A stretch of DNA of 64,000 nt. Origin: Isurus oxyrinchus. Lineage: Eukaryota. Numbering within the stretch: position 1 is the first letter of the stretch; the number at the start of each line of letters is the position of its first letter. Under the pieces are notes generated by a model, which did no database searches, was not told where the DNA came from, and worked only from the letters and a program-made list of their open reading frames with translations. Location: positions 558,001-622,000 of the forward strand of contig JANJGN010000150.1 in the NCBI GenBank assembly GCA_026770705.1, written 5' to 3'. The translations under genes were made by a program, and so were the position numbers. Below, one piece after another: positions 4,685 through 49,093 of this stretch.

Positions 4685-4974
4685 GTAATACACGTCACTG
4701 TCTTCAGCTCTGAGACTGTCAATCCTCACCAAACAATTCTTCCCTTCCAAGTCACCGATTATTTTAGCACGTCCCACGAATGTGGCCATCCCATAATTGG
4801 GATCTTTGGTGTATGTGATGGTATATTTCCATCTATACCAATATTTATACCAAGCTCCGTGCAGTGCTGTGTAAGAGTGGGAAGGAAAGTCAAAGCTACA
4901 CGGAATAACCACACAAGAGCTGCTGATGGCCCTCCGAGGCAGCGCCTTCATAGACCATCCCTCTGACGTCACTC
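4685..4974 (-). pseudogene. Siglec-like gene A V-set exon, truncated after DVYY by a Gypsy relic
   Basis: Acceptor tttcag. SCVVIPCSF...NCLVRI...EDSDVYY, then diverges abruptly from gene B into gag-like sequence, with a stop at 4673-4675. Confidence 0.85.
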
Positions 4975-5794
4975 CTGAAAGGCAACAAGGGAAGAGACAG
5001 GACATCAAAAAGCAGAATATTACTTCAATGGAGAGAGGCAGCAGAATGCGGTACAGAGGGATCTGGGTGTCCTTGTACATGAATCACAGAAAGTCAGCAT
5101 TCAGGAACAGCAGGGAATGAGGAAGGCAAGTGGAATGTTGGCCTTTATTGCAAAGGGATGGAGTATAAAAGGAGGGAAGTCTTGCTACAACTGTACAGGG
5201 CGTTGGTGAGATTGTATCAGGAGCAGTGTGTACAGTTCTGGTCTCCTTACTTAGGGAGGGATAGACTCTGCATTGGAGGCAGTTCAGAGGAGGATCACTG
5301 GGCTGATTCCTGGGATGAAGGGGGTTTGTCTTATGAGGAAATGTTGAGCAGGTTGGGCCCTGTATCCATTGGAGTTTAGAAGAATGAGAGGTGATCTTAT
5401 TGAAACATATAAGATTCTGAGGTGGTGGGGGGTTTGACAGGGTCGATGCTGAGGGGATGTTACCCCTTGTTGGGGAATCCTGTGAAGCAATAAGGATGTT
5501 TTACTGCACTAAAGGTGCTGTATAAATGCACTGTCATTCCTATTGAAACAAGCTCTCTGATGCACAAACAGAAAATGCTGGAAAAACTCAGCCGGTCTGA
5601 CAGCATCTGTGGAGAGAGAAACAGAGTTGGTGTTTCGAGTCCGTATGAGGCTTTTGCTTTTGCTAAATTCTCTGACTCGCTATTCACTCACTCTCTGTGT
5701 GATCACTAACCCTGTTCTCTAAAATTAAATGTTCACTTCCTCACTCCAGGAAAGAATCCAATTCCCTGAGTTCCGATCAGTAATGAATTTGTAC

Positions 5795-5840
5795 CTTGCA
5801 GCAAGCTGATGAAGATCAATATCAGACCGACCTCTCCCAT
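5795..5840 (-). pseudogene. Siglec-like gene A leader exon (MGEVGLILIFISLLQ)
   Basis: 46-nt phase-1 exon with donor gtac; inverted copy of 28227-28272. Confidence 0.85.
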
Positions 5841-6109
5841 CTTCAGTTCCTCATCTAAATGGAAATGATAAAGACAGAGACTTTTTCATAAATTGTCCCC
5901 AGCGTTTCTTCCTCAAACAACAACAACTTGTGGTTAAATGGCACCTTTCAGTGAGTTAAACAGCCCCAGGGAATAAACTAATGTCAAGACAAGGAAGGAG
6001 AGATTGAGAAGGGACATCGCAAACCGATTCACCAAACACGGCAAAAATTCATTGTTCCCTCACTCCCTGTGCTGGGTGTCCAGATTTTTCTCTCAGTGAG
6101 TTTAGTCCT

Positions 6110-9479: not shown

Positions 9480-9730
9480 GAGGGAGTGCTGCACTGTTGG
9501 AGGGTCAGTACTGAGGGAGTGCTGCACTGTCAGAGGGTCAGTACTGAGAGAGTGCTGCACTGTTGGAGGGTTAGCACTGAGGGAGTGCTGCACTTCCAGA
9601 GGGTCAGTGCTGAGGGAGTGCTGCACTCCCAGAGGGTCAATAATGAAGGAGTGCTGCACTCTCAAAGGGTCAATGCTGAGGGAGTGCTGCACTGTCAGAG
9701 GGTGGGCACTGAGGGAATGCTGCTCTGTCA
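9480..9730 (-). repeat. 33-bp satellite (cagtgcagcactccctcagtactgaccctctga)
   Basis: Period 33; also at 7310-7412 and 24290-24620. Confidence 0.9.
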
Positions 9731-10134
9731 GACCTGCCATATTTCAGATGACATTTGAAATTAGCAACATGCCTCATGTATAATTATATATCATCAGCTC
9801 AAAATAAATAGATTATTCCTGTACGTTTCACTTTACTGTAAATTGTTTGCAGTTTCATTTCCTTAGAAACCAGGCTTGTGTGATCACTATTTTTAAATAA
9901 CGTTAATAATAAAGATGCAACAATCCACACGCACACATGTACACACACACACACACTCACTCACAAGGGTACATAGACAGACACACACTCACNNNNNNNN
10001 NNNNNNNNNNNNNNNNNNNNNNNNNNNNNNNNNNNNNNNNNNNNNNNNNNNNNNNNNNNNNNNNNNNNNNNNNNNNNNNNNNNNNNNNNNNNNNNNNNNN
10101 NNNNNNNNNNNNNNNNNNNNNNNNNNNNNNNNNN

Positions 10135-16410: not shown

Positions 16411-16600
16411 TATTAACAGATGTAAAATTATACATAATTCATAAGCTTCTCACAATCTATAACAGCATGGAAAATGGTGCAGCATTCAGAAAGCTCAGTT
16501 AAAACCAATAAAAAAAAGTTGAGCAACATCATATTTGTGTTCATTACTATTTGGCCATGTTGGCTGCACACACCCCACAGCCCCGCTCCCTGTTTCACAC

Positions 16601-16848
16601 TCAGTTTTTCTGGAACCTGATCTGTGCGTATTCGTGTCCTCGCTCCTGTGCACAGTCCTGTCACCGCTGGGCAGCTTTGAAAAGTTGATGTTGGCGTAGA
16701 AAAGCTCGTCAGGTTTGTCGGAGTTCCCATGTCCAACATCGCCTCCCACTGGACCTTCAGAGAGACCCCGGGGAGCTGGGGTCTCCCCCTCACTAGTTGT
16801 GTCTCTGGTTGTGTTCCGGGGCTCAGTAATCAGCACGTTCTGTTTACC
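16601..16848 (-). CDS. Gene D last cytoplasmic exon: ITIM (LFYANI) plus ITSM-like (T)EYAQI reached only after a 1-nt frameshift
   Basis: Acceptor ctgtag, phase 0. GKQNVLITEP...DELFYANINFSKLP...RSED, then AC GAA TAC GCA CAG ATC AGG TTC CAG AAA AAC TGA. Uncorrected, the frame runs on to 16495. Confidence 0.85.
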
Positions 16849-17309
16849 CTACAGAGAAATAGAAACAGAAGACATCCTCACATCATTTACTGGTACTGAT
16901 AGGGTTAAATTATTCTGCAGCCTCGTTACTGTCAGTCATGTCTCAATGGGTTTAACCCTCTTTTTCACTCTCTTTCTCTGTCTCATTTTTTTCAATCTCT
17001 TTCTCTGTCTCTCTTTCTGTCTCTCTCTCTTGCTTTCTCTCTCTATTTATCATGTAATCTCTCTCGCTATCGCAGACCTGAGTCTTGAAGTCCTATGTTA
17101 CCATCCCAATCATGAGATTTGTGCCCCATTATTCACAAACACAGACACACAAAGAACCTCACGCCAATGAAGGAATTTTATTGAAGGGCGACACTGCTAC
17201 AGTGTTGGAAATGTGGCCATGGGACCAGGTAAGATGGTAAACATGGTCAGCATTATACAACTATTCTGAAAGAGGCACCTCGAACACTGCAATGTTCTCT
17301 CAGTGCTCT

Positions 17310-17685
17310 CTGCTGACAGTGCAGCACTCCCTCGGAACTGCCCCTTCAAGAGGGCAGCACCCCTTGAAAATGGACTCTTTGACAGTGCAGCACTCACTCA
17401 GTACTGTCCTCAGTACTGACCATCCGACAGTGCAGCATTCCCTCTGTACTGACCCTCCGACAGTGCAGCACTCCCTCAGTACTGACCGTCCGACAGTCCA
17501 GCACTCCCTCAGTACTGACCCTATGACAGCGCAGCACTCCCTCAGTACTGACCCTCTGACAGTCTAGCTCTCCCTCAGTACAGACCCTCTGACAGTGCAA
17601 CACTCCCTCAGTACTGACCTTCTGACACTCCAGCACTCCCTCAGCACAGACCCTAGGACAGTGCAGCACTCCCTCACTACTGACA
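17310..17685 (+). repeat. 33-bp satellite
   Basis: Same unit. Confidence 0.9.
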
Positions 17686-17896
17686 TCAGGTGCCTTGTCA
17701 TTATTGCGTTCAGGTTTCTGGTCAAAGAGCGAGTGATGGAGGGAAGAGGGGGAGGGAGCGAGAGACAATGCTACCTACTGAGCCATATCTGACTACACAG
17801 GTAGATATCTGTGGGTAACCTGGCTGGGAATCTGGGACACGTGTTGTCTACACACTGAGATTGAAGCTTTGGAGTGTGTGTAAACAGCTCCTGTAC

Positions 17897-17978
17897 CTGG
17901 TGTTTCACAGAGAGTGGACTGGGGGTCAATGCAATGTCACTGGTCCCTGAAACTCTCTCCTCCATCGCTGTCTTTCTC
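17897..17978 (-). CDS. Gene D first cytoplasmic exon (RKTAMEERVSGTSDIALTPSPLSVKHQ)
   Basis: Acceptor ttgcag, donor CAG|gtacag. 82 nt, phase 2 to 0, bridging the TM and last exons. Confidence 0.85.
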
Positions 17979-18519
17979 CTGCAATAACACAATATCACAC
18001 TGTGGTTATCATATAGCAGAGAGTCAGTGCAGCACAGACACAGAGCCCAGTGTAACCTTACACCAACGACTGGACTGTCTCTAGTTCCAATAAGGGATAT
18101 CAGCGTGACATCACTATAATGGAAGTGTGTCATGTGATCCAATCTTAGTTTGACTTTTGCTTTGAGCAGAACACACACTCACAGCTCTGATGCCTTCAAT
18201 CTTTCTCCATATGTATAACTGTTCTCGTGCCGAGTCTTGATAAACAAATCATTAACATTCTCACCCAATCCCTGTGAGCGATTGGTGCTTTGTTTCTTGT
18301 ACAATAAATAAGCCTAAGGTATAATATCATTATAATGACACGCCATATCTTTGACCCCCCCTCCACCCCTGCTCTTCCCCCCATAGCCCTTCAAATGTTC
18401 CCCCTTCAAGTATTTATCCAATTCCCCTTTTGAAAGATCCTATTAAATCTGCTTCCAGCGCCCTTTCAGGCAGCACCTTCCAGATCACAGCAACTGATTA
18501 TTATTCATCTGGATAACGG

Positions 18520-19010
18520 GCAATGAAAAACACTGTCTGGATCGTAAGGGACAAAAGAGACCAGTTACGGAGAGGCATCTGGCGCTTAACACAAGGGAAA
18601 CAATCACCGACTTCAGGAAAGAACATTGAAGCAAATATTTATCCAGGAGTAATCGTGCAGAGTGAGGAATCTCTGGGTCTCGTGATTGTTTACTGGATAC
18701 AGGACAATGAAAGGTTCTCTCCGGATCATAGTGGACACAGGGACCAGTTACGGAGAGGGACCTGGTGCTGATCCCAAGGGAAACAATCACCGACTTAAGG
18801 AAAGAACATTGAAGCAAATATTTATCCCGGAGTAATCGTGCAGAGTGAGGAATCTCTGGGTCTCGTGATTGTTTACCTGGATACAGGACAATGAAAGGTT
18901 CTCTCCGGATCAGAGTGGACACAGGGATCACTTACAGAGAGGGACCTGGTGCTGATCCCAAGGGAAACAATCACCGACTTAAGGAAAGAACATTGAAGCA
19001 AATGTTTATA
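18520..19010. repeat. ~183-bp tandem repeat (~2.7 copies) in a gene D intron
   Basis: caatcaccgactt recurs at 18601, 18784 and 18968. Confidence 0.88.
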
Positions 19011-19039
19011 TTAAAATCAAGTTAAATCTTCAGACTTAC

Positions 19040-19136
19040 TTTCTCACACAGATGAAGATGAAGATTCCAGCCAGGAAAACACTCAACATGATCCCAGCCG
19101 TGAACAATCCTACTGTCCATTTACTGGAGTCTCTAC
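19040..19136 (-). CDS. Gene D transmembrane exon (RDSSKWTVGLFTAGIMLSVFLAGIFIFICVRK)
   Basis: ttttacag / gtaagt, 97 nt, phase 1 to 2, uncharged hydrophobic helix. Confidence 0.9.
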
Positions 19137-19946
19137 CTGTAAAAACAGCCATTAATTACTGCACTACAGGTTTACAATGATGCTCCGATGTATCTCGAGA
19201 AGCGATACACTCACTCAGTGTTTAAATACTCATTCTCGGGCAATGCTGACATTTATTGTCCATCCCTAGTTTCCCCTTGAGAAGGTGGTGGGGGGTCTTC
19301 CTCCTGAACCACTGGTTTGTCCCAAACTGGGAGACCAGTTCAGAGGGCAGGTGTGAGTTAACCATGTTGGTGTCTGAGACTGGAGTCACATCCACATCGA
19401 GACATGCTTCCCTCCCTAAAGGGTATGTAGTCTCTACACATGTAACAACCAACCTCACTGAAATAATCGACTATCAGGTCATTATCACACGGTGGTTTGC
19501 GGGATCTTGCTGTGCACAAATCAGTACCTGTGTTTCCTACATTACAACAGTGAGCTCACTTCGATAATGCTGCATTGGCTGTTGAATGTTTAGTAATTTC
19601 TAAGCAATTTATGAATACAATAGTTGCATTTCAACATGTAACATTTATATATAATATTTATCAATTCAAGAATGAGAAGTTCAGCAATTAAAAGGGTTGT
19701 TCAGGACAGTTAGAGAGAGAAAGGTCGTCAAGTATGGAGATTGGAAACGAAGACCTGACAGCCTTGTCCTGACAACCATTGAAGGAGAAACTGAGAGCAA
19801 AAACAGAAAGGAAGAGGAAAAATTGGATGTGTGGATAACGTGGACTGAGCGAGGATTGAAGAAAACTGGATTAAAAACAACACGATCCCAATGGCTCCAC
19901 GGAGACCACGGAGACAACAAACAAACAAATGTATCTCCACACTCAC

Positions 19947-20228
19947 ATTCCACAGTGATGGTTATGAACCCCTCCACTGCTCCATGTTCATTCTCTGCCA
20001 CACACTGATAGTCTCCAGTGTCCCTGGATGTAACGTGAGGAATCACCAACCACAGCTCATTGTTGGAACTTGTTCTGTTCATTGGGACATTAAGATGTCG
20101 CCACGTCAGGTTAGAAGCTGGGAAGCTCTCGACAGAGCAGATTATCACTGCAGAATTCCCCTCAATTATATTGATTGATGAAGCGTAAATCATATTAAGC
20201 GAAGTAAATGAGAGATCCTGTGGTGCAT
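19947..20228 (-). CDS. Gene D C2/I-set Ig exon 4
   Basis: 282 nt, phase 1-1; CSVESFP..LTW..DTGDYQC. Confidence 0.9.
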
Positions 20229-20915
20229 CTAAAAACAAATCAAGTGTTTAATGTGAGCAAGCACAGTTTACAGCAAGACTCCATGCATCATCTCTCTGTA
20301 TCTGATGTCTGAATGCATAGCCAGGTCCCTCCACTCCATATAACTTCCATTGTCAAATTTATAGTGGGCACTGCCTATGTAAACTGTCAAACTGCAGTTA
20401 CATTCTCCCACCAGTAGAGGTGCTGTCCACCTAGAATGAAAGAAACTTTCACATCCTCAGGATATACCCAAGGGCTTGACAGGCAATGATTGTATTTGAT
20501 TGATGGAGCACTGAGGGGTAAATCTACAATTCTCTGTTCAGGAGGTTGCTCATCCAATTCAGGGTCTTGTTGATCTGGAGTTTACCTTCCTTCAACACAG
20601 AATCAGAGCTGATACCGAGACTCCAGTGCAGCACTGAGAGAGGACAGGGAACTCACACATGTGTTTGTGTTTGTGTGTTTTAGTGTGTTTGTGTTTCTGC
20701 ACAAGAGAGTATGTTTATGTGTGCGTGTGTGTATGTGTTTGTGCATGTGTGCGTGTGCCTGTTTGTATACATCTGTGCATGAGTGAGTGTGTGCATGTGT
20801 ATGTCTATGTGTGTGCACATGTGACTGTGTGTGTGAGTTGAGTGTGTGTTTGTTTCTGTGTATGTGTTTCAACATGCATCACTGTGTTTAAGTGTGCGTG
20901 TATGTGTCTACACAT

Positions 20916-20948
<33 letters not shown>

Positions 20949-20974
20949 TGATGTTGAAGTTTGCAGTAACTCAC

Positions 20975-21256
20975 GTTCCACAGTGATGGTTATGAATCCC
21001 TCCACTGCTCCATGTTCATTCTCTGCCACACACTGATAGTCTCCAGTGTCCCTGGATGTAACGTGAGGAATCACCAACCACAGCTCATTGTTGGAACTTG
21101 TTCTGTTCATTGGGACATTAAGATGTCGCCACGTCAGGTTAGAAGCTGGGAAGCTCTCGACGGAGCAGATTATCACTGCAGAATTCCCCTCAATTATATT
21201 GATCAATGAAGCGTTAATCATATCAAGAGAATTAATTGAGAGATTCTGTGGTGCGT
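20975..21256 (-). CDS. Gene D C2/I-set Ig exon 3
   Basis: 282 nt, phase 1-1, canonical ag/gt. Confidence 0.9.
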
Positions 21257-21681
21257 CTAAAAACAAATAAAGATTTTAATGTGAGCAAGCACAGTGCACA
21301 GCAAGACTCCATGCATCATCTCTCTGTATCTGATGTTGGAATGCTTTTCCAGGTACCTTCCCTCATGAAAAATTACTGTCATATTTATAATGGGCGCTTC
21401 CTATGTAAACTGTCACACGGCAGTTGCTTTCTCCCACCAGTAGAGTTGCTAACTGTCTAGAATGAAAGAAACATCCTTTAACACTCTCAAGATGTCCCCA
21501 AAGGCTTGACAGGCAATGAATTGTATTTGATCGATGGAGAACTGAGGGGTAAATCTACTGTTCAGGAAGTTGCTCATCCAATTCAGGGTCTTGCTGATCT
21601 GGAGTTTACCTTCCTTCAGCACAGAATCGGAGCTGATACCAAGACTCCAGTGCAGCACTGAGAGAGGAGAGGCCGCGCATA

Positions 21682-21722
<41 letters not shown>

Positions 21723-22020
21723 GCAAGTGAGTTTGTATTTGTGTGTATGCGCGTGTCTGTCAGCGCATATGTGGGTGTGTGTGTGTGTGTGTCTGTGTGT
21801 GTGTCTGTGTGTGTATGTCTGTGCTTGAGGGAGTGTGTGTGCATATGTGTGTCTATGTGTGCGCATGAATGATTGTATGTGTGAGTTGAGTTTGTGTGTG
21901 TTTCTGTGTATGTGTTTGAACGTATGTTTGTGTGTAAGCGTGCATGTTTGTGTCTACACATGAGTGTTTTTGCATGTGTGAGTATGTGTGTGAGAGATGT
22001 TGAAGTCTGTGTACACTCAC

Positions 22021-22302
22021 ATTCCACAGTGATGGTTATGAATCCCTCCACTGCTCCATGTTCATTCTCTGCCACACACTGATAGTCTCCAGTGTCCCTG
22101 GATGTAACGTGAGGAATCACCAACCACAGCTCATTGTAGCAACTTGTTTTGTTCATTGGGACATTAAGATGTCGCCACGTCAGGTTAGAAGCTGGGAAGC
22201 TCTCGACAGAGCAGATTATCACTGCAGAATTCCCCTCAATTATATTGATCGATGAAGCATTAATCATTTCAAGAGAAGTAAATGAGAGATCCTGTGGTGA
22301 AT
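22021..22302 (-). CDS. Gene D C2/I-set Ig exon 2 (extra Cys, NKTSCYNEL)
   Basis: 282 nt, phase 1-1, canonical ag/gt. Confidence 0.9.
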
Positions 22303-23072
22303 CTAAGAACAAATCAAGTGTTTAATGTGAGCAAGCAGCGTGCACAGCAAGACTCCATGCATCATCTCTCTGTATCTGATGTCTGTATGCATTTCCAGAT
22401 ACCTTCCCTCCATATAACTTCCACTGTCAAATTTATAATGGGCACTGCCGATGTAAACAGTCAAACTACAGTTACATTCTCCCACCAGTAGAGGTGCTGT
22501 CCACCTAGAATGAAAGAAACTTTCACATCCTCAGGATTTTGCCAAGGGATTTACGGGAATGAATTGTATTTGATCGATGGAGCACTGAGGGGTAAATCTA
22601 CAATTCTCTGTTCAGGAGGTTGCTCATCCAGTTCAGGGTCTTGTTGATCTGGAGTTTACCTTCCTTCAACACAGAATCGGAGCTGACACCGAGACTCCAG
22701 TGCAGACCTGAGAGAGAAGAGGGACCTCACCCGTGTTTATGTGTATGTGTTTGTGTTTCTACATATGTGAGTATGTTTGTGTGAGTATGCATGCATGTGT
22801 CTGTGTGTGCATGTGTGTATGTGTTTGCGCAAATGTGCGTGTGTCTTTGTGTATATTTCTGTGCATAAGTGAATGTGTGTACATGTGTGTGTGCATGTGT
22901 GTGTCTTTGTGTGCGCATGAATGTTTGTATGTGTGAGTTGAGTTTGTGTGTGTTTCTGTGTATGTGTTTGAACGTATGTTTGTGTGTAAGCGTGCATGTT
23001 TGTGTCTACACATGAGTGTTTTTGCATGTGTGAGTGTGTGTGTGAGAGATGTTGAAGTCTGTGTACACTCAC

Positions 23073-23354
23073 ATTCCACAGTGATGGTGATGAATCCCTC
23101 CACTGCTCCATGTTCATTCTCTGCCACACACTGATAGTCTCCAGTGTCCCTGGATGTAACGTGAGGAATCACCAACCACAGCTCATTGTTGCAACTTGTT
23201 CTGTTCATTGGGACATTAAGATGTCGCCACGTCAGGTTAGAAGCTGGGAACCTCTCGACAGAGCAGATTATCACTGCAGAATTCCCCTCAATTATATTGA
23301 TCGATGAAGCATTAATCATTTCAAGAGAAGTAAATGTGAGATTCTGTGGAGCAT
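23073..23354 (-). CDS. Gene D C2/I-set Ig exon 1 (extra Cys, NRTSCNNEL); no leader or V exon found upstream
   Basis: 282 nt, phase 1-1, canonical ag/gt. Confidence 0.9.
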
Positions 23355-26300
23355 CTAAGAACAAATCAAGTGTTTAATGTGAGCAAGCAGCGTGCACAGC
23401 AAGACTCCATGCATCATCTCTCTGTATCTGATGTCTGTATGCATTTCCAGATACCTTCCCTCCATATAACTTCCACTGTCAAATTTATAATGGGCACTGC
23501 CGATGTAAACAGTCAAACTACAGTTACATTCTCCCACCAGTAGAGGTGCTGTCCACCTAGAATGAAAGAAACTTTCACATCCTCAGGATTTTGCCAAGGG
23601 ATTTACGGGAATGAATTGTATTTGATCGATGGAGCACTGAGGGGTAAATCTACAATTCTCTGTTCAGGAGGTTGCTCATCCAGTTCAGGGTCTTGTTGAT
23701 CTGGAGTTTACCTTCCTTCAACACAGAATCGGAGCTGACACCGAGACTCCAGTGCAGACCTGAGAGAGAAGAGGGACCTCACCCGTGTTTATGTGTATGT
23801 GTTTGTGTTTCTACATATGTGAGTATGTTTGTGTGAGTATGCATGCATGTGTCTGTGTGTGCATGTGTGTATGTGTTTGCGCAAATGTGCGTGTGTCTTT
23901 GTGTATATTTCTGTGCATAAGTGAATGTGTGTACATGTGTATGTGTATGTGTGTGCATGTGTGAGTGTGTGTGTGTGAGTTGAGTGTGTGTATGTTTCTG
24001 TGTAGGTTTTTGCACGTGTATGACTGTGTGTAAATGTGCATGTATGTGCCTACACATGAGTGTGTGTGTGTGTGTGTGTGTACATGTGTGCATGTGGATT
24101 GTCGCATCTTTATTATTAACGTTATTTAAAAATAGTGATCACACAAGCCTGGCTTCTAAGGAGATGAAACTGCAAACAATTTACAGTAAAGTGAAATGTA
24201 CAGGAATAATCTATTTATTTTGAGTTGATGATATATAATTATACATGAGGCATGTTGCTAATTTCAAACATCATCTGAAATATGGCAGGTCTGACAGAGC
24301 AGCATTCCCTCAGTGTCCACCCTCTGACAGTGCAGCACTCCCTCAGCATTGACGCTTTGAGAGTGCAGCACTCCTTCAGTATTGACCCTCTGGAAGTGCA
24401 GCACTCCCTCAGTGTTAACCCTCCAACAGTGCAGCACTCCTTGAGTACTGACCCTCTGACAGTTCAGCACTGCCTCAGTACTGACCCTTTGATAGAGCAG
24501 GGTTTCCCTCAGTACTGACCTCCTGACAGTGCAGCACTCCCTCAGTACTGACCCTCTGACAGTGCAGCACTCCCTCAATACTGACCCTCCAACAGTGCAG
24601 CACTCCCTCAGCACTCCCTCACTGGGGAGAGTCCATCTGGGTTTTGAGCTGAAACCTTGAGACGGTTTGAAAACCCCAACCTGCTGTCTTGGAGAGAGAG
24701 AGAGAGAGAGTGAGTGCGTGTGTGAGAAAGAGTGACAATGTGTGTGTGAGAGAGTGACAGTGCGTATGTGTGCGAGAGAGAAGGATAGAGAGAAAGAGAA
24801 AATGTGTGAGAGAGCAAAAGAGAGGTAGAGTGTGTACGCATGAGAGAGCGAAGTAGCTGAATTGTGTGAGAGAGAGAGTGTGTGTGAGAGAAAGGGAATG
24901 TCTGTGTTAGAGAGAGAGCTTATGTGTGAGAGAGAAAGAAAGAGAGAGAATCTGTGAGTGTTAGATAGTGTGCGTGTGAAAGAGAGAGTGTGTATGTGAG
25001 AGAGCGTGTGCGTGAGACCGTGTGTGTGTGTGTGTTTGAGAGAGAGGGTGTATGTGTTTGAGAGAAGGAGTGTGCGAGAGAGGGTGTGTGTATTTGAGAG
25101 GGAGTGTGTGTGTTTAAAAGAATGAACAAGAGAAAATGTGTGTACGTGTGTGTGTGTGTGTCTGCGTGTGCATTCTGACTGAGCCGAGTTTACAGTTTCA
25201 CACGTTGCTAGGGACCACTTTTCTGCCTCTCTGTCAGACTGTGTGTATCTGACAGCAGGTCAGGCAGGAATAGTCCAGAATGCGCTGTGGTTTTGTAGCA
25301 TTGAAACAACGACATGAACTAATTGAGTGCTGCACCAAATAAAGACATGGAGTGACCACACCAAAAAACCACGTGACTTCCCCAGTTTCACATCTCTCTC
25401 AAACACAGAAAAACTGGGTTAACACTGACCCTCCTCCCAGAGCCAGTTCACCTCGTGTCCGATGCAGTCAGGAGAGGAAGATCATCTCTCCTCCGATCCT
25501 GCTAAACTGAACATTTCCAGAATTAGATCAGCTCCCTGAAGTGTCTCCAGTTAGACATTCATCTGACAGGATTGACTCTACAACCCTGGGGACTCATTCT
25601 CCTGTAAGTAAAACACTTGCTGCTCCTGTCAAATCTCTTCTGTACAGCATGGTCTCTGGATGTCCCAGAACACTTTACAGTTGAGTTCACCCTTTTTTCG
25701 AAGTGTGGTTACTGTTGTAATGTAGGAAACGCAGCAGCCAATTAGCGCACAGCAAGCTCCCACAAACAGCAATGTGATCATCTGTTTTTGGTGATGTTGG
25801 TTGAGGGATAAATACTGGTCCCAGGACACCGGGGAGATCTCCCCCCTGCTCTTCCTCCAAATAGTGGCTGTGGGATCTTTCACACCTGCCCGAGAGGGCA
25901 GACGGGGGTCTCGGTTTAGTGTCTAATATTGGACTAATCTCCAGGCGAGGTTGGCTGGATGGATTATTGACAAGGTCCATTCACCCTGTAAAGAGTTTCT
26001 CTGGTTTGAAATACCCGATCAAACATCGAGTTCTGTGTCTAAACCTTGTGTTGAAAAGACACCTTTCCAGCTCTTCACCTGCCATTAGCTTGTTGAGTCT
26101 TCACATGCTCTGTCTGTCCGTAACCAACCCCTCTTAACTCATCCTTTCCTTGTCGTACATCGAGCTGTTCATCCTGACGGGTTCCATCCTTCCCAGTAAC
26201 ACTCCAACTCCGACATCAAACTAACTCCCAACACGTTGATGAATTGCATGGATTCCAGCGTCAGTTGGTTCTGTCTGAGGCTGTTTCTCTGATCGGGGAC

Positions 26301-26689
26301 CGAGCTGTTCTGAACGGACATTGTGTTCAGCAGTTCTTATTGCAGATCAGGCTGTTCAACCAATGCTGCTGTTCACTGAGGTGACTTCGATTCTACATTC
26401 ACACATTAATGATCTCATGTCCAGCAGCAAACATCTGAATGAAGCCAGGTTCAAGAAAAATCCCAGCTGCTTGATCCGACAGTTATCTGTTCAGGCATGG
26501 CCCCTTGTTCCAAATAACAAACATTATTTAAAAATAGTCATCACATGAGCCTGGTTAACAAGGAAATGAAACCATGAACAATTTGCAGTAAAGTGAAACG
26601 TACAGGACTAATCTATTTATATTGAGCTGATGATATAGAATTTTAGATGAGGCATGTTGCTAATTTCAAACATCATCTGAATTACGGTA

Positions 26690-27255
26690 GTTCTGACAGT
26701 GCAGCACTCCCTCAGTACTGACCCTTTGACAGTGCAGCACTCCCTCAGTACTGACCCTCTGACAGTGCAGCACTCCCTCAGTACTGACCCTCCGACAGTG
26801 CAGCACTCCCTCAGTACTGACCCTCTGACAGTGCAGCACTCCCTCAGTACTGACACTCTGACAGTGCAGCACTCCCTCAGTACTGACCCTCTGACAGTGC
26901 AGCACTCCCTCAGCACTGACCCTCCGACAGTGCAGCACTCCCTCAGTACTGATCCTCTGACCGTGCAGCACTCCCTCAGTACTGACACTCTGACAGTGCA
27001 GCACTCCCTTAGTACTGACCCATTGACAGTACAGCACTCCCTCAGTACTGACCCTCTGACTGTACAGCACTCCCTCAGTACTGACCCTCCGACAGTGCAG
27101 CACTCCCTCAGGACTGACCCTCTGACTGTACAGCACTCCCTCAGTACTGACCCTCTGACAGTGCAGCACTCCCTCAGCCCTGACCCTCTGACAGTGCAGC
27201 ACTCCCTCAGCACTGACCCTCTGACAGTGCAGCACCCCCTGAGCACTCCCTCACT
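26690..27255 (+). repeat. 33-bp satellite
   Basis: About 17 units. Confidence 0.92.
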
Positions 27256-28226
27256 GGGGAGAATCTGCCTGGGTTTTGAGCTGAAATCATGAGCAAGTCT
27301 TAAATCCTTCCGTATCAGAGAGAAGAGGGAGAGAGTGTGAGAGAGAGAGAGAAAGAGAGGGAGAGAGAGACAGTGTGAGAGAGAAAAAGAGATAGAGAGA
27401 GTGTGTGCATGTGTGAGGGAGAGTGTGTGTGTATGAGGGAGAGAGTGTGCATGTGAGAGAGAGTGTGTTTGAGAGAGAGTGTGTGTGTGAGAGAGTGTGT
27501 GTGAGGGAGAGAATGTGCGTGTGAGAGAGAGTGTGTGTGAGAGAGAGTGTGTGTGAGAGAGAGTGTGTGTGAGAGAGAGTGTGTGTGAGAGAGAGTGTGT
27601 GTGTGAGAGAGAGGGTGCTTGTGTGTGAGAGAGAATGTGCGAGAGAGAGAGAGGGTACTTGTGTGTGAGAGAGAGAAAGAGGGAGACAGCAGAAGAGCGA
27701 GATAGAGAGAAATGGTGAAAGTTTGAGAGAGAGAGAATGTGTGTGTCAGAGAGAGAATGAGTGTGTTTGAGAGAGAGAGATAGAGCAGAAGAGTGCGATA
27801 GAGAGAGATTGTGTTTGTGAGAGAGAGAATGTGTGTGTGTGAGAGAGAGAGAGAGCAGAGGAGTGTGATAGAGAGAGATTGTGAGTGTTAGAGAGAGAAT
27901 GTGTGTGTGAGAGAGAGAGAGAGATAGAGCAGAAGAGTGTGATAGAGACAGATTGTGAGGGCTAAACTCACTGAGAGATAAAGCTGGACACCCAGCACAG
28001 GGAGTGAGGGAACAATGAATTTTTGCCGTCTTTGGTGAATCAGTTTGCGATGTCCCTTCTCAATCTCTCCTTCCTTGTCTTGACGTTAGTTTATTCCCTG
28101 GGGCTGTTTAATTCCCTGAAAGGTGCCATTTAAACACAAGTTGTTGTTGTTTGAGGAAGAAACGCTGGGGACAATTTATGAAAAAGTCTCTGTCTTTATC
28201 ATTTCCATTTAGATGAGGAACTGAAG

Positions 28227-28272
28227 ATGGGAGAGGTCGGTCTGATATTGATCTTCATCAGCTTGCTGCAAG
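28227..28272 (+). CDS. Siglec/CD22-like gene B leader exon (MGEVGLILIFISLLQ)
   Basis: ATG at 28227, donor CAAG|gtac, phase 1. Confidence 0.9.
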
Positions 28273-29092
28273 GTACAAATTCATTACTGATCGGAACTCA
28301 GGGAATTGGATTCTTTCCTGGAGTGAGGAAGTGAACATTTAATTTTAGAGAACAGGGTTAGTGATCACACAGAGAGTGAGCGAATAGCGAGTCAGAGAAT
28401 ATAGCAAAAGAAAAAGCCTCATACGGACTCGAAACACCAACTCTGTTTCTCTCTCCACAGATGCTGTCAGACCTGCTGAGTTTTTCCAGCATTTTCTGTT
28501 TGTGCATCAGAGAGCTTGTTTCAATAGGAATGACAGTGCATTTATACAGCACCTTTAATGCAGTAAAACATCCTTATTGCTTCACAGGATTCCCTCCCAA
28601 GGGGTAACATCCCCTCAGCATCCACCCTGTCAAACCCCCCACCACCTCAGAATCTTATATGTTTCAATAAGATCACCTCTCATTCTTCTAAACTCCAATG
28701 GATACAGGGCCCAACCTGCTCAACATTTCCTCATAAGACAAACCCCCTTCATCCCAGGAATCAGCCCAGTGATCCTCCTCTGAGCTGCCTCCAATGCAGA
28801 GTCTATCCCTCCCTAAGTAAGGAGACCAGAACTGTACACACTGCTCCTGATACAATCTCACCAACGCCCTGTACAGTTGTAGCAAGACTCCCCTCCTTTT
28901 ATACTCCATCCCTTTGCAATAAAGGCCAACATTCCACTTGCCTTCCTCATTCCGTGGTGTTCCTGAATGCTGACTTTCTGTGATTCATGTACAAGGACAC
29001 CCAGATCCCTCTGTACCGCATTCTGCTGACTCTCTCCATTGAAGTAATATTCTGCTTTTTGATGTCCTGTCTCTTCCCTTGTTGCCTTTCAG

Positions 29093-29449
29093 GAGTGACG
29101 TCAGAGGGATGGTCTATGAAGGCGCTGTCTCGGAGGGCCATCAGCAGCTCTTGTGTGGTTATTCCGTGTAGCTTTGACTTTCCTTCCCACTCTTACACAG
29201 CACTGCACGGAGCTTGGTATAAATATTGGTATAGATGGAAATATACCATCACATACACCAAAGATCCCAACTATGCGATGGCCACATTCGTGGGACGTGC
29301 TAAAATAATCGGCGACTTGGAAGGGAAGAATTGTTCGGTGAGGATTGAGAGTCTCAGAGCTGAAGACAGTGATGTGTATTACTTCTACGTGGATGCGGAG
29401 GGCTACACAGATCACACTTTTACACAACCAGTCCAACTCCAGGTTCTTG
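29093..29449 (+). CDS. Gene B V-set Ig exon (Siglec-type Cys pattern, no essential Arg: DVYYFYV)
   Basis: 357 nt, open, phase 1-1, tttcag / gtaagt. SCVVIPCSF, GRAKIIGDLEGKNCSVRI, EDSDVYYF. Confidence 0.92.
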
Positions 29450-31602: not shown

Positions 31603-31860
31603 ATTCTCCTCACAACACGTCTGTCAGGATGACACTGGAAAAAGGAAAGGTGATTTCTCTAAGTTGTTCCAGTGACGGGAATCCAGCAGTCCACAATTTC
31701 ACCTGGTTTAAGATCTCCCAAGGAAAGGTGACGAATCTCGCGCTCGCTGGTCAAACTATTACAGTTCCTTATGGATTCGATGAGGAAATCTCCTACTACT
31801 GTGAAGCAACAAGTATCCTGGGCAGTTCCCAGTCTCTGCCCATTAGAATTCCCACTGAAT
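31603..31860 (+). CDS. Gene B CD22-like C2 Ig exon
   Basis: 258 nt, phase 1-1; LSCSSDGNPAVHNFTWFK...YYCEATSILG. Confidence 0.9.
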
Positions 31861-36609: not shown

Positions 36610-36891
36610 ACACACCACAGAATCTCTCAATTAATTCTCTTGATATGATTAACGTTTCATTGATCAATATAATTGAGGGGAATTCTGCAGTGATAATCTG
36701 CTCAGTCGAGAGCTTCCCAGCTTCTAACCTGACGTGGCGACATCTTAATGTCCCAATGAACAGAACAAGTTCCAACAATGAGCTGTGGTTGGTGATTCCT
36801 CACGTTACATCCAGGGACACTGGAGACTATCAATGTGTGGCAGAGAATGAACATGGAGCAGTGGAGGGGTTCATAACCATCACTGTGGAAC
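36610..36891 (+). CDS. Gene B C2/I-set Ig exon (module shared with genes C and D)
   Basis: 282 nt, phase 1-1, ttttcag / gtgagt. Confidence 0.9.
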
Positions 36892-37370: not shown

Positions 37371-37652
37371 ATGCTCCACAGAACCTCTCAATTACTTCTC
37401 TTGATATGATTAACGCTTCATCGATCAATATAATTGAGGGGAATTCTACAGTGATAATCTGCTCTGTCGAGAGCTTCCCAGCTTCTAACCTGACGTGGCG
37501 ACATCTTAATGTCCCAATGAACAGAACAAGTTCCAACAATGAGCTGTGGTTGGTGATTCCTCACGTTACATCCAGGGACACTGGAGACTATCAGTGTGTG
37601 GCAGAGAATGAACATGGAGCAGTGGAGGGATTCATAACCATCACTGTGGAAC
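37371..37652 (+). CDS. Gene B second C2/I-set Ig exon (shared module)
   Basis: 282 nt, phase 1-1, tttttag / gtgagt. Confidence 0.9.
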
Positions 37653-38918: not shown

Positions 38919-39015
38919 GGCGAGATTCCAATGAATGGAAAGCAGGATTGCTTGGAGCTGGAATCTGTTTGAGTGTTGGACTGAGTGGATTCTTCATCTT
39001 CAAGTGTATGAGAAA
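38919..39015 (+). CDS. Gene B transmembrane exon (RDSNEWKAGLLGAGICLSVGLSGFFIFKCMRK)
   Basis: ttttacag / gtaagt, 97 nt, phase 1 to 2; paralogous to the gene D TM exon. Confidence 0.9.
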
Positions 39016-39622: not shown

Positions 39623-40372
39623 GAATCACGTCACAGAGTCAGGACACAAAGGGTTAACAGTTTGTTAACAACACAACACTAAGGCCCTACGTTTCAATGA
39701 AAGGGTTTTCACAATTGTTCCCCAATTCCTGATTTGACTCACAGAGACACATCCACCCTTTCTCATTAAATACACAGAGGGAGCAGCACAGGAAGAGGTC
39801 ATTCAGCCCAAGCAGAGCGTGTGGGCAGTTCCTCCCCAGGCGAGCAGTCGGACAGGTACTGGGTAAGTAACGGAACGATTGGAATTCACTTCCACCACCA
39901 ACACCGTCCTTTGTTGATGTTGTGACTTTATAAAGACAGATTGCAATGATTGATGCCTTTGAAAGATTTCTACTGATTATTGAGATCTGGGTGTGAGGCT
40001 CAAGTCTGTTGTACAGAACATCTTTCTGGTTAAATTATGCAGACAGGTTACACACAGTCTACGATTATATTCACTCGGGTCTAGAAGATTTAGGAGGGAT
40101 CTAATTGAGGGGTTCAAACTGATTAAACACTCGATAGGGTCGATAGAGAGAAGCTATTCCCTCGGGTGGGGGTGAGGATGGGGGTCGGGTGGAGTCCAGA
40201 ACAAGGGGGCTGGAACTTCAGATTGGAGCCAGGCCGTTCAGGGGTGATGTCAGGAAGCACTTCTTCACACAAAGGGGAGTGGAAATCTGGAACTCTCTCC
40301 CCAATAATCAAACCCAACACCGAATACACATCATGTTGATTGTCATTCTGTCCATTTCCATCTCTATTTCGG

Positions 40373-40453
40373 AAGAGAGGTGAGGGGAAAGCAGGAATCA
40401 AATCGAACCACCGTGTTGATGAATATCGAGGTCCTGTTTATGAAAACTGTGAG
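40373..40453 (+). pseudogene. Gene B cytoplasmic exon relic (KRGEGKAGIKSNHRVDEYRGPVYENCE), acceptor reads GG
   Basis: Homologous to the 42238 exon and its acceptor (tctatttcgg|aagaga vs tctattacag|aagaaa); carries a YEN motif. Confidence 0.55.
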
Positions 40454-40609
40454 CGTGGTTGGGCTTTGAGGAATCAGGTGAGTCACACACCACAGGATCC
40501 CCAGCCTCTCAGCTGCTCCAGTAGCCTGGTTATTGATATGGCTGCTCCAGTCCTGTATCTGCAATGTTTTATACAGTCACTCCCAAACCCAACCAAACTC
40601 ACACCCAAC

Positions 40610-42140
40610 ACCATTCAGAATCAATAATCAAACCCCGATCAGAATCAATAATCAAACCCCGTTCAGAATCAATAATCAAACCCCGTTCAGAATCAATAAC
40701 ACACCCCGTTCAGAATCAATAATCAAACCCCGTTCAGTATCAATAACCAAACTCCGTTCAGTAACAATAATAAAACCCCTTCAGAATCAATAATCAAACC
40801 CCGATCAGTATCAATAATCAAACCCCGTTCAGAATTAATAATCAAACCCCTTTCAGAATAAATAATCAATCCCCGTTCAGTATCAATAAACAAACCACGT
40901 TCAGTATCAATAATCAAACCCTGTTCAGAATTAATAATCAAACCCCTTTCAGAATCAATAATCAATCCCCGTTCAGTATCAATAAACAAACCCAGTTCAG
41001 AATTAATAATCAAACCCCGTTCAGAATCAATAATCAAACCGCGTACAGAATCAATAATCAATCCCCGTTCAGTATACATAATCAAACCCCGTTCAGTATC
41101 AATAAACCAACCCCGTTTAGTATCAATAATCAAACCCCTTTCAGAATCAATAATCAATCCCCGTTCAGTATCAATAAACAAACCCCGTTCAGAATTAATA
41201 ATCAAACCCCGCTCAGTATCAATAATCAAACCGCGTTCAGAATCAATAATCAAACCCCGTTCAGTATACATAATCAAACCCCGTTCAGTATCAATAATCA
41301 AACCCCATTCAGAATCAATAATCAAACCCCTTTCAGAATCAATAATCAAAACCCAGTTCAGAATCAAGAATCAAACACCGTTCAGTATCAATAATCAAAC
41401 CCCGTTCAGAATCAATAATCAAACACTGTTCAGAATCAATAATCAAACCCCATTCAGTATCAATAATCAAACTCCGTTCAGGATCAATAATCAAACATCG
41501 TTCAGAATCAATAATCAAACCCCGTTCAATATCAATAATCAAACCCCGTTCAATATCAATAATCTAACTTCGTTCAGCATCAATAATCAAACCCCGTTCA
41601 GATTCAATAATCAAAACCCTTTCAGAATCAATAATCAAACCCCATTCAGTATCAATAATCAAACCCCGTTCAGTATCAATAATCAAACCCTGTTCAGAAT
41701 TAAAAATCAAACCTGTTCAGTATCAATAATCTAATCCCGTTCAGAATCAATAATCAAACCCCGTTCAGAATTAAAAATCAAACCCCGTTCAGTATCAATA
41801 ATCTAACCCCGTTCAGTATTAAAAATCAAACCCCGTTCAGTATCAATAATCTAACCCCGTTCAGTATCAATAATCAAACCCCATTCAGTATCAATAATCA
41901 AACCCCGTTCAGAATCAATAATCAAACCCTGTTCAGTATCAATAATCAAACTACGTTCAGGATCAATAATCAAACTCCGTTCAGATTCAATAATCAAAAC
42001 CCATTCAGAATAAATAATCAAACCCTTTTCAGAATCAATAATCAAACCCCGTTCAGAATTAAAAATCAAACCCCGTTCAGAATCAATAATCAAACATCGT
42101 TCAGGATCAATAATCAAACCCCGTTCAGTATCAATAATTA
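40610..42140. repeat. 24-bp minisatellite (aatcaataatcaaaccccgttcag), ~63 copies
   Basis: Period 24 seen directly. Confidence 0.95.
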
Positions 42141-42237
42141 ATGTATCTACTGTGGATGGAATTTTTTGATTTGGATCAATAATACTAAACACTGATCACT
42201 CTGATTGTCACTCTGATCATTTCTGTTTCTATTACAG

Positions 42238-42354
42238 AAGAAAGATGAGAAGGATCTGGAAATGAAATCTAACCGCGGAGTCAATCCTGATACAGATGAT
42301 GATCTTTACGCAAACTGTGATTTTGCCAAGGATTCTGTTTATGGGAATTTATAA
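42238..42354 (+). CDS. Gene B terminal cytoplasmic exon (KKDEKDLEMKSNRGVNPDTDDDLYANCDFAKDSVYGNL*) with ITIM-consensus SVYGNL
   Basis: Acceptor attacag, phase 0, 117 nt to TAA, two Tyr motifs. Confidence 0.75.
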   Translation, partial: KKDEKDLEMKSNRGVNPDTDDDLYANCDFAKDSVYGNL

Positions 42355-45460: not shown

Positions 45461-46139
45461 GCATGTGAACAGTCAATGGCCCTTCAAAAACATTCTTGGC
45501 ACGCAAAGGGTTAATAGTTTTCTAACAGTGCGAGGCAAAGAGCATCTTTCTCACTTGGTACCAAGCACTTCCTCATTTTGACTCACAGTGACACATCCAC
45601 CCTTTTTAATTAAACACACAGAGGGAGCAGCACAGGAAGAGGTCATTCAGCCCAAGCAGAGCTTGTGGGCAGTTCCTCCCCAGGCGAGCAGTCGGACAGG
45701 TCGGGGGTAAGTAACGGAATGATTGGAAATCACGGGGGGAGTTCTGAGGGCTCCTAATCCATTGTCCTGTCTTGTAAATCAGCACCTTAATACTGACCCT
45801 TCAACAGTGCGGCACTCCCTCAGTACTGATCCTCCAACATTGCAGCACTCCCTGATTAATGTCCCTCTGACAGTGCAGCACTCCCTCAGTACTCACCCTC
45901 AAACAGTGGAGATCTCCCTCAGTACTGATCTTACAATAGTGCAGTAATGACCATCCGACATTGCAGCACTCCCTCAGTACTGACATTGGGCAGTTTCAGT
46001 CTACTCTGTGGGGCAGACGTCCCCTGAATGGGGTCTTGAATCCCACAACATTCTGACCCCCTGAATTTGGCTGTGAAACCCACTGACCCACAGGAGAAAC
46101 TCCTGGTCAATGACTGTCCACCTGTGAGCAGAAATATCA

Positions 46140-46360
46140 ACACAGGGTCAGGACACAAAGGGTTAACAGTTCACCAACATCTCAAAACATGAGCTGCTCT
46201 GTCACTTTGATCCAACTTCCTCATTTTGACTCACAGAGACACATCAACCCTTTCTCATTAAATACACAGAGGGAGCAGCACAGGAAGAGGTCATTCAGCC
46301 CAAGCAGAGTGTGTGGGCAGTTCCACCCCAGGCGAGCAGTCGGACAGGTCCTGGGTAAGT
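46140..46360 (+). promoter_or_regulatory. Probable promoter and non-coding first exon of gene C (TGACTCA, TTCCTC/CAGGAAG ETS-like, attaaata, donor gtaagt at 46355)
   Basis: Lies ~400 nt upstream of the leader-exon acceptor; near-identical copies at 39630-40027 and 45500-45730. Confidence 0.5.
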
Positions 46361-46782
46361 AACGGAACGATTGGAATTCACTTCCACCACCAACACCGTC
46401 CTTTGTTGATGTTGTGACTTTATAAAGACAGATTCCAATGATTGATGCCTTTGAAAGATTTCTACTGATTATTGAGATCTGGGTGTGAGGCTCAGGTCCG
46501 TTGTACAGAACATCTTTCTAGCTCAAGGGATGAGGGAAGTGCAGAGACATGAGCTTTGGGATGTCCTGAGGTGCTGAAAGGTGCTATAGAAATGCAAATC
46601 CTTCATTGTTTGTCTTTCTTAAAGCCTTGTAACTCTCTGCAGAGCACCTATCATCCCACAGAGAATCAAATTAGTCTGTGAAGACATTGTCTAAAAGCAG
46701 TTCTGATCTCTCGAAAGGTGCTGGACAAGAGGTGAGATCTCATTAACTCCTTTCTCTTTCACAGCTTGAGAGTGAGAAGTGG

Positions 46783-46843
46783 ATGGAATATCTGGGAGTG
46801 GACAATGATCGGGAAATCTACTTCCTCTTGTCACTTCTCCAAG
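46783..46843 (+). CDS. Gene C leader exon (MEYLGVDNDREIYFLLSLLQ; or MIGK-IYFLLSLLQ from ATG 46805 with one base missing)
   Basis: Acceptor at 46763-46764, donor CAAG|gtaata, phase 1; ends in SLLQ like the gene B leader. Confidence 0.75.
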
Positions 46844-47546
46844 GTAATATCATCGTCAGCTTGGACAGATTTATAGTTAACAGTCTTTGTAAAAGATCAT
46901 TCTTATCTCTTTATCTCTGTAACCTCCTGCAACGCAACCAATCAACTTCCCAGGTCTCTGTGTTACTCCAATTCTGGCCTCTTGACCATCCCCCGATTCC
47001 CATCACTCCAATACTGGCGGCCGTGCCTACAGCTGCCTGGGACCTGAGCTCTGGAATTCACTCCCTAAACCTCGGCGATGGAGGAGATCAGAGGGTTTCA
47101 TTTTACTGAGAATCACCACGACCACATCACAGCTGCAGTGAGAATAGACAGAGAGTCCAGCCCTCACACTTACTGCACAGTTTCACCATAGCAACCACAA
47201 TATGGAAATTTAAAAATACTGAAAGTTAAACTGAAGCTCAGCCCATTCAGTGTTGAGAGATGAGATATTTACACAGTTTCCCTGTCTATCTTGTAGACAC
47301 TGTGTTGGGTGGAAGACTGGCTTCACTAAACAGGGTCCTGAGGACCATGAGCCAATGTAGAATGAACTTGTCCACTCCTGTGTCCAGGATTCTCTTCTAT
47401 CTGTTGTGAAACCTTGGGGAGTTCCTTGTGTGTCCTGTAGATGGTCCACACTGCAGCCACTGTGCCCCAGTGATGGAAGGGGTGGATATCGAGTCTAGTG
47501 GATCTACAAACCATCCAGAGTCAAATATTGATATTTCTCTCCCCAG

Positions 47547-47920
47547 TTGGACTGTCACAAGAGTGGAAAGGTGACACTCCACGAGAGGTGACAGCGCAGG
47601 AAGGTTCGTATGTACAGATTCCATGTCATTACAGTTACTTATCAAATTTCGTAGGGAGATCACGTGCGGAATCTGGTTGAAAGGAATAGATGGGAACCCA
47701 CAGCCTAAATGGTCTATAGCCTTTCACTCCGAGGGTCACAATCACAGGGATCAAAGATTCCGCCATCGTACCCGGCTGTCTGGAGACCTGAAAGATGGCG
47801 ACTGTTCCCTGATTATAAACAACATCAGACGGGAAGATGCAGGACCTTATTTCTTCAGGATAGAATTTGACAGCAGTAATAGTTACAACTACTATCCTGT
47901 AACCCAGCTTCATGTTTCTG
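47547..47920 (+). pseudogene. Gene C Siglec V-set exon with the essential Arg (PYFFRIE) but a 1-nt deletion near 47666
   Basis: ccccag / gtaagt; 374 nt (375 needed). AQEGSYVQIPC..GIW..RTRLSGDLKDGDCSLIINNIRREDAGPYFFR. Confidence 0.88.
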
Positions 47921-48320
47921 GTAAGTGCTGTGTTATAATTACTCAACAATTCACATTCAACACTCAATGGGAATTAACACAAACTGTGACGTTTACATAT
48001 TAACACAAAACACAGCTTATTATAACACACTGTCTGATTCTCAATAACCTGGTGATAGCTTCCAGTTCAGTCCTAAAGCAACCTCTAATACTCACTTTAA
48101 TATCAATGATTAAATGTATTGACTGTGTCCATCAAAGTTATCAGGTTATCCACTCTCATCGATCTCTCTAATCCTGTTTAAAATAATTTCCTGATCATTG
48201 TAACCTCTCAGTTCTGATATCATCCTTGTAAAAGTGCTTTCTCTTGTGGGACTGTGATTTCTATTTGAACTGATGCTTCACGTTATATTTCTCTAAAAGG
48301 ATCCATTCTCCGTCTGTTAG

Positions 48321-48617
48321 ATTTCACAGATAAACCCACGATATTCCCTGCTGAAATTATTGCAGGAAAGCCTGTGGATGTAAGCTGCACCTTCAACACA
48401 ACGTGCAATGGAACAGCAGCACCTGTCTTAACCTGGGACACTCCCACTGACGTACCTGGATCAGTCTCAAACACTGTAACTCAGCATGGTGTCACTCTGA
48501 CCTATACTTCTGTTCTGACCCTGATCCCATCACTCAAACACCACAGACACACTCTCAGCTGCAGAGTGAGATATCCATCTGTTTCATCGGAGCGGACCCT
48601 CGTACTAACTGTGCAAG
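48321..48617 (+). CDS. Gene C Siglec domain-2 C2-set exon
   Basis: 297 nt, open, phase 1-1. KPTIFP..VSCTFNTTCNGTAAPVLTW..SVLTLIPSLKHHRHTLSCRV, the CD33/MAG-type D2 with an extra Cys. Confidence 0.92.
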
Positions 48618-48940
48618 GTAAGTACGGACACCTTTCATTCTACATCAGCACTCCCTCAGCGCTGACCCTCTGACAGTGCAGCCCGTTCTCAGTATCCACA
48701 TTCTCATGCCTCTCAAAGTGCTTCACAGTCGATAGAAGTTAATTGATCTTTATTTGATTATTGCTGAATGAAGAGACAAGCTGTCTAAACTTCTCATATT
48801 GCAAACAGCATTCTCCACGGCAACACCTCCACCTATCAGAGACCACTTGCCAACCAATCAGCACTGTCTTCCCATTAAGTATAAATTGTTGTTCACTTCC
48901 TGTTGGTAATCATGCGAACGGGGTTCTTGATTCCTGCCCT

Positions 48941-49093
48941 GACATCTTAATGTCCCAATGAACAGAACAAGTTCCAACAATGAGCTGTGGTTGGTGATTA
49001 CTCACGTTACATCCAGGGACACTGGCGACTATCAGTGTGTGGCAGAGAATGAACATGGAGCAGTGGAGGGGTTCATAATCATTACTGTGGAAT
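48941..49093 (+). pseudogene. Gene C 5'-truncated copy of the shared C2 exon
   Basis: Only HLNVPMNRTS...ITVE plus the gtgagt donor remain; the acceptor and first ~130 nt are replaced by unrelated sequence at 48758-48940. Confidence 0.85.

Follow-up and report, generated by a model that had tools for sequence, protein, structure and literature searches.

The window analysed here is a stretch of 64,000 nucleotides from Isurus oxyrinchus, and all positions given below are counted within it. It contains several Siglec-like genes, and one of these, gene B, carries the exons of an Ig-type receptor on the forward strand. The gene opens with a signal-peptide exon (28227..28272, MGEVGLILIFISLLQ) that ends in a phase-1 GT donor and matches the N-terminus of the Carcharodon protein P0010 at 89%, and it continues with a V-set exon of the Siglec D1 type (29093..29449, P0001; 357 nt, 118 aa, phase 1-1), which is bounded by canonical splice sites, an AG acceptor running to 29092 and a GT donor at 29450. 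Directly after the V exon comes a C2-type Ig exon (31603..31860), identified by Pfam, tblastn and boundary checks, and then two C2/I-type Ig exons (36610..36891 and 37371..37652), the second a tandem duplicate, a transmembrane exon in which a mid-membrane charge is absent (38919..39015), and a tail of two or three cytoplasmic exons. The first of these lies at 39778..39862; a possible optional exon with the motif YENC (40367..40477) matches the Carcharodon isoform P0009 at 92% over 37 aa; and the last (42238..42354) encodes DLYANC and the ITIM-consensus SVYGNL before the stop. Located by tblastn with relatives together with boundary checks, the exons splice at canonical sites to an open frame of 507 aa. 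The tail region (40367-42354) has up to three YxN motifs (YENC, YANC, YGNL), which several relatives also have in their tails, YxN being the Grb2 SH2 consensus.

The layout of gene B is that of Carcharodon P0010 minus the exon for domain 2 (D2), and its domains are 92-96% identical to those of Carcharodon. Neither tblastn nor an unfiltered HMM search found a D2 exon or a remnant of one in gene B, and these searches did find the D2 of the neighbouring gene C. As the intron between the V and C2 exons carries two tandem arrays, the exon may either have been truly deleted or have been lost in an assembly collapse. The equivalent in MAG of Cys20 (29152..29154), C37, bonds to D2 (C37-C165; PMC5150538), so that with the partner exon absent Cys20 is unpaired in this copy. 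The D1-D2 disulfide and the C2-set domain 2 of Siglecs are thus lacking in gene B, whereas at the sequence level they are present in 24 of 27 relatives; the three without D2 are all basking-shark models, in two of which V is spliced directly to the C2 exon that follows it in gene B.

The genes around gene B are in a poorer state. On the reverse strand, 4685..5840 is an inverted duplicate of the signal and V exons of gene B that ends right after DVYY; it differs from the original at 7 of 290 nt (3 synonymous and 4 non-synonymous changes between the two copies, which tell nothing about selection), with the aromatic segment described below identical. It belongs to an inverted duplication of about 4685-9960 versus 24062-29382 that takes in the upstream region of gene B. 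Beyond the DVYY break the sequence is unrelated and, by eye, retroelement-like; a Pfam scan of four ORFs of the intervening DNA, one of them past the truncated V copy, matched none of the four. Gene A (16600-23355, reverse strand) comprises four near-identical C2 exons, a transmembrane exon and a tail exon encoding LFYANI, whose frame is lost ahead of the ITSM known from relatives, and no signal, V or D2 exons for it were found upstream on its strand. Gene C (46780-49092, forward strand), which served as the comparator, has signal and V exons that are out of frame relative to its relatives and a 5'-truncated next C2 exon; its V exon (374 nt) is frameshifted and has Tyr for the first Cys (SYVQIPC). 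Gene C looks like a pseudogene, though the single-base differences might instead stem from errors of assembly. Just upstream of it are two orphan copies of cytoplasmic exon 1 of gene B (45602-45700 and 46262-46354, forward strand).

With such neighbours, gene C frameshifted, gene A without its 5' exons and the second V copy truncated, and with its own D2 exon not found, gene B might be a decaying duplicate within a functional family, its D2 loss leaving Cys20 unpaired. We consider this possible, though not probable, given the open frame of 507 aa with canonical splice sites, the high identity to the Carcharodon domains and the occurrence of D2-less models, two with V-to-C2 splicing, in the basking shark; the D2 exon may also have been dropped by the assembly between the two tandem arrays. 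In lacking domain 2, this copy of gene B may be a variant or impaired.

The V domain itself is of Siglec type. The initial annotation had placed a Siglec-fold V domain at these coordinates, which proved exact, and had noted Siglec cysteines (SCVVIPC, NCS), which are present in the translation together with WYKYWYRWKYTITY and DVYYFYV. The domain matches the Pfam V-set with an E of 7e-08, and by sequence the first-ranked solved structures are MAG (E 1e-14), sialoadhesin and Siglec-5; matches in the ESM Atlas were to generic V-set and CD22-like clusters only. Of five models computed from 63 sequences, the best had a pLDDT of 82 and the remaining four 60-67; this best model superseded an earlier one on 15 sequences (pLDDT 62, residues 29-48 below 50). 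Its strands are C (36-43), C' (50-53), F (93-102) and G (112-117), with the C-C' loop at 44-49. Compared with sialoadhesin, it gave a Z of 17.6 and an rmsd of 1.5 A over 112 aligned residues, and the top seven structural matches were all Siglecs, with which Foldseek concurs. The cysteines of the B-E intrasheet disulfide, C25 and C80, are invariant in the clade defined below, and the F-strand Cys is absent, F97 standing at that position. A homodimer prediction for the V domain, run without an alignment, scored 0.16 against a mark of 0.32 and is counted neither for nor against dimerisation. Overall, gene B has the organisation of a type-I Siglec with C2 repeats and ITIM-like Tyr motifs (signal, three further Ig exons, transmembrane exon, SVYGNL), and an ITIM/ITSM-like motif occurs in 12 of 18 full-length models of its clade.

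What sets gene B apart is the residue on strand F at which Siglecs hold the carboxylate of sialic acid. That the essential Arg is missing had been read from DVYYFYV in gene B versus PYFFRIE in gene C, and alignment bears this out: Tyr98 (29386..29388) aligns without gaps with MAG Arg118, with the F-strand Arg of sialoadhesin and with the Arg of the gene C motif, and all 23 clade domains have Tyr there. No conserved replacement Arg lies near the pocket by alignment position across the clade V domains, which speaks against a possibility raised at the outset, that another Arg might occupy the pocket: the sole invariant Arg is R68 in strand D, R83 and R88 lie well away from the pocket, and R47 is variable. 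The other contacts have changed less. His107-Thr108 (29413..29418) faces MAG Tyr127-Thr128, which contact the glycerol chain, and among 13 one-per-genus rows of the clade the aromatic position of strand G is His in 9 and Tyr in 4, with Thr108 in 11. Of the MAG pocket residues, which include Arg118, Y65, Y127 and T128 (PMC5150538), the last three face in the alignment Y46 (approximately), H/Y107 and T108 of the clade, and W6 of gene B matches a contact position of MAG and sialoadhesin. The F-G hairpin of the clade is acidic (D/E100, E/D102). As far as aligned positions go, the pocket of gene B appears to be a Siglec site retained apart from its salt bridge.

The second distinguishing feature is the segment W41-Y50 (29215..29244), which runs from the end of strand C through the C-C' loop into the start of C' and includes the sequon W45xxW48. 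It had been described as an aromatic and basic patch, WYKYWYRWKY, and the aromatic run is indeed beyond chance: only 160 out of 20000 shuffled versions of the V domain reached seven aromatics in ten residues, and never more than five occur in the segment among 122 Arg- or Lys-bearing V domains of sharks and rays. Two of its members have to be set aside. W41, in strand C and invariant in both clades, is the core Ig Trp and not part of a surface patch, and the patch Arg, R47, falls in a column of 6 Y, 3 S, 2 H, 1 R and one other in the 13 one-per-genus rows, so that the conserved basic residues, judged from the alignment, are K43 and K49. With 4-5 aromatics present in the corresponding stretch of sialoadhesin and MAG, the patch is the extension of an ancestral trait.

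The conservation of the segment in gene B's relatives is, nevertheless, unlike that in the paralogues. Y44, W45, W48, K49 and Y50 are found in 23 of 23 distinct Tyr-type domains and K43 in 22. The C-C' loop has a pairwise identity of 0.79 in the clade, with four of its six columns invariant, the top value of eight loops, versus 0.22 in the 122 Arg/Lys paralogues, of which it is the most variable loop. For the whole segment (41-50), identity is 0.84 versus 0.67 for the remainder of the domain in the 13 one-per-genus rows, and 0.36 versus 0.65 in the Arg/Lys domains, a contrast inflated by the Tyr set being mostly orthologues and the Arg set mixed paralogues. Among 109 ten-residue windows the patch ranks 11th in conservation, behind core strands. 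A subgroup of Arg-bearing shark proteins (8 rows chosen on a PWAP motif) also keeps a Trp-containing C-C' stretch (0.75 versus 0.74 domain-wide), so that a new ligand does not follow from a conserved loop by itself. The WxxW sequon is present in 23 of 23 clade domains versus 6 of the 122, and from this match W45 may be C-mannosylated. That the loop is unchanged in sharks and rays alike argues for a retained role in binding.

How old the change is can be judged from its distribution. A search with the single sequence returned 25 matches, all with the same Tyr motif, and a further search gave two more; removal of duplicates and one partial left the 23 distinct domains, window included, used throughout. 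The relatives, 62-96% identical, span 14 shark and ray genera out of 18 elasmobranch genera among the matches listed, and the nearest named proteins belong to the lamniforms Carcharodon and Cetorhinus (V-domain identity 91-96%); Mustelus, Heterodontus, Hypanus and Leucoraja had, among the matches listed, non-clade matches only. No chimaera or bony-fish member was found among the matches listed, an absence that carries little weight. When 1.84 billion representatives were searched exhaustively, the best 150 of 652 matches comprised seven at 64-92% identity and a rest at 40% at most. A census of the Arg site in 162 distinct V domains, drawn from 121 proteins, counted Arg in 121, Tyr in 24, Lys in 8, Trp in 7, and Ser and Thr in 1 each, and these domains offer better comparators than gene C. 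In a D1-D2 tree, which took in 20 of 77 Arg-clade rows, the Tyr-type genes fell on one side of a branch with an SH-aLRT of 99 (16 clade rows among 54), and in a V-only tree that included the window they did so at 100/99 (17 V rows among 44). The deep branching differs, the clade joining the shark Arg clade in the first (85) and teleost clades in the second (85/64); the trees were built without a named true MAG, and unnamed matches, possibly MAG or CD22 orthologues, were left out. Sharks and rays parted roughly 250-300 million years ago or earlier. On these comparisons, the Tyr-type genes are most likely an old, elasmobranch-wide offshoot of the Siglecs and not the decay of a single copy. The Tyr-type V-D2 head occurs with at least three different tails (ITIM plus ITSM, YANC/YGNL, and short basic) and with C2 arrays that vary (P0002-P0025), and these mixtures suggest exon shuffling within the cluster. 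Databases label the clade proteins as CD22-, MAG-, sialoadhesin- or Siglec-13-like despite the missing residue that defines such lectins. Because the Arg is absent and, in this copy, D2 as well, we do not file gene B as a sialic-acid-binding Siglec, although it is Siglec-derived and resembles an inhibitory Siglec in organisation.

The explanation that we favour, with confidence a little above even, is that gene B represents an old elasmobranch offshoot of the Siglecs in which the Arg was fixed as Tyr and which would bind a conserved, non-sialic ligand and signal inhibition. The fixation would have preceded the shark-ray split. The GFCC' face (F/Y42, Y44, W45, Y46, W48, Y50, Y96, Y98, H/Y107, T108) would then be a rebuilt ligand site, its carboxylate salt bridge gone and its flanks acidic at D/E100 and E/D102, while K43 is probably turned inward, where it would pair with the clade-specific D93, going by V-domain geometry. 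A surface without variation is more in keeping with a conserved ligand than with an arms race against fast-evolving pathogen proteins, and from a pocket kept minus its salt bridge, an acidic hairpin, the lack of a conserved Arg nearby and the invariant surface, we infer that this ligand is non-sialic. It would be held by aromatic stacking, with the Trp/Lys C-C' loop stacking on a head group and docking at the membrane, as K126 and W127 of Siglec-6 do. By that analogy a glycolipid or lipid head group in a bilayer is the class of ligand we would choose, though as a tentative choice and on balance an improbable one. Ligand engagement could lead to phosphorylation of SVYGNL (SHP-1/2) and of the YxN motifs (Grb2-type), and hence to damping of leukocyte activation; inhibition via SHP-1/2 is proposed here from established Siglec biology. 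In its fullest form the proposal is of an inhibitory family kept since the shark-ray ancestor, with an aromatic cage, an acidic rim and possibly a C-mannosylated Trp loop, that reads a non-sialic, conserved membrane signal such as a neutral glycolipid or a choline-type lipid head group, and so specified it is speculative, with the chances against it.

The initial annotation had already proposed non-sialic recognition through an aromatic platform, on the premise that the F-strand Arg is required. The loss of the Arg and the invariant loop lend that reading partial support; it is weakened by the conservatively kept remainder of the pocket, by the lack of domain 2 in this copy and by the premise, which holds for MAG, in that R118A abolishes binding to ganglioside liposomes (PMC5150538), but is not absolute. 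Siglec-6 binds gangliosides in bilayers largely independently of its Arg, via Trp127 and Lys126 (PMC12953582): in glycolipid-liposome binding W127A loses about 95%, and R122A retains about 75% (a further source on this non-canonical glycolipid or bilayer site is PMC10122656). It follows that gene B could conceivably be an Arg-independent sialoside lectin, in which the Tyr98 hydroxyl, the invariant K49 and the G-strand contacts bind Neu5Ac weakly and the loop adds specificity or avidity for gangliosides. Residues at MAG and sialoadhesin contact positions (H/Y107, T108, Y46, W6) and the R122A result favour such a lectin, but we think it unlikely in view of MAG R118A, of primate Arg mutants that fail to bind sialic acid (PMC6288428) and of an F-G hairpin that, with the Arg gone, is left acidic. 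We are equally doubtful that the aromatic face is a protein interface, be it with a conserved counter-receptor, with another copy of itself or with an Arg-bearing paralogue, as no candidate partner emerged and the sugar-pocket-like G-strand residues that were kept suit a small ligand, even though the face is invariant and strongly hydrophobic, GFCC' faces are common interaction surfaces of V-set receptors, and Tyr-type and Arg-type genes lie side by side in the window and are both contained in the models P0011 and P0026.

Among known systems, MAG is the closest in sequence. It is the best PDB match, with 57 versus 48 bits for V and 101-111 versus 68-83 bits for V plus D2, and it shares the Cys pattern, a similar F-G hairpin and G-strand residues, and a WxxW C-mannosylation site, modification at W22 having been demonstrated for MAG (PMC5150538). 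The differences are that MAG Arg118 is Tyr in gene B; that the WxxW of MAG is N-terminal and that of gene B in the C-C' loop; and that gene B, a member of a multi-copy cluster, has another C2 count and another tail, with four Ig exons (the number varies in relatives) as opposed to the five Ig domains of the MAG lineage. Descent from MAG, which the best PDB matches suggest, does not follow from them, given that an Arg-bearing teleost control also matches MAG best (120 versus 94 bits) and that the deep branches differ between the trees.

The Arg-bearing Siglec-like genes of elasmobranchs (CD33-like and Siglec-10/12/13-like) are in the same cluster and share its C2, transmembrane and ITIM exons. 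They differ in having V domains that are only about 22-32% identical, on a separate branch, with Arg or Lys in 122 near-full-length domains and mostly variable C-C' loops. Such shark and ray proteins (P0027-P0055) have tandem V domains, at least seven in P0027, and eight domains have Lys at the Arg site. Multi-V Siglec-like models from the teleosts Anguilla, Fundulus and Ophioblennius have the Siglec Cys pattern but carry Trp, Tyr or His in place of the Arg; these Arg-less models (P0059, P0061, P0070, P0258) have a WVD motif, sit on separate branches and lack the WKY loop, and from sequence their losses were probably independent of that in the shark clade. The literature on shark, elasmobranch, Callorhinchus and teleost Siglecs, including the accessible part of bioRxiv 10.64898/2026.08.25.746757, yielded no description of the Tyr-type lineage as far as listings and the openings of abstracts show; subscription reviews and supplements may mention it. 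The accessible part of PMC7226832 leaves sharks and cartilaginous fish unmentioned, and that of PMC8455134 mentions Siglecs once.

Siglec-6 offers a functional analogy only, based on its V-domain Trp/Lys pair and its Arg-independent binding of a membrane ligand (PMC12953582 and PMC10122656); it has kept its Arg, and its KW pair comes just after the Arg (K126/W127 versus R122), in another loop. If the proposal holds in its fullest, speculative form, the shark and ray genes would be the first family of Siglec fold to have a fixed alternative ligand, and would point to a second code of "self" beside sialic acid; the gene B-type V domain is, in any case, a defined and expressible domain with which to probe ligands of the Siglec scaffold apart from sialic acid. 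Siglecs without the Arg are already known, and what surprises is its ancient fixation as another residue together with an invariant aromatic loop. The known cases in primates, human Siglec-XII (R122C) and great-ape Siglec-5/14, likewise combine a Siglec fold, a mutated essential Arg and a retained signalling tail, but are recent and lineage-specific losses, and Siglec-XII is gathering null alleles (PMC6288428). Loss of the Arg, as in Siglec-XII, is usually read as the retirement of a receptor. In the sharks and rays it is old, with Tyr fixed across 14 genera and the loop newly invariant where the paralogues vary most, and this is the pattern expected for a change of ligand, not for decay.
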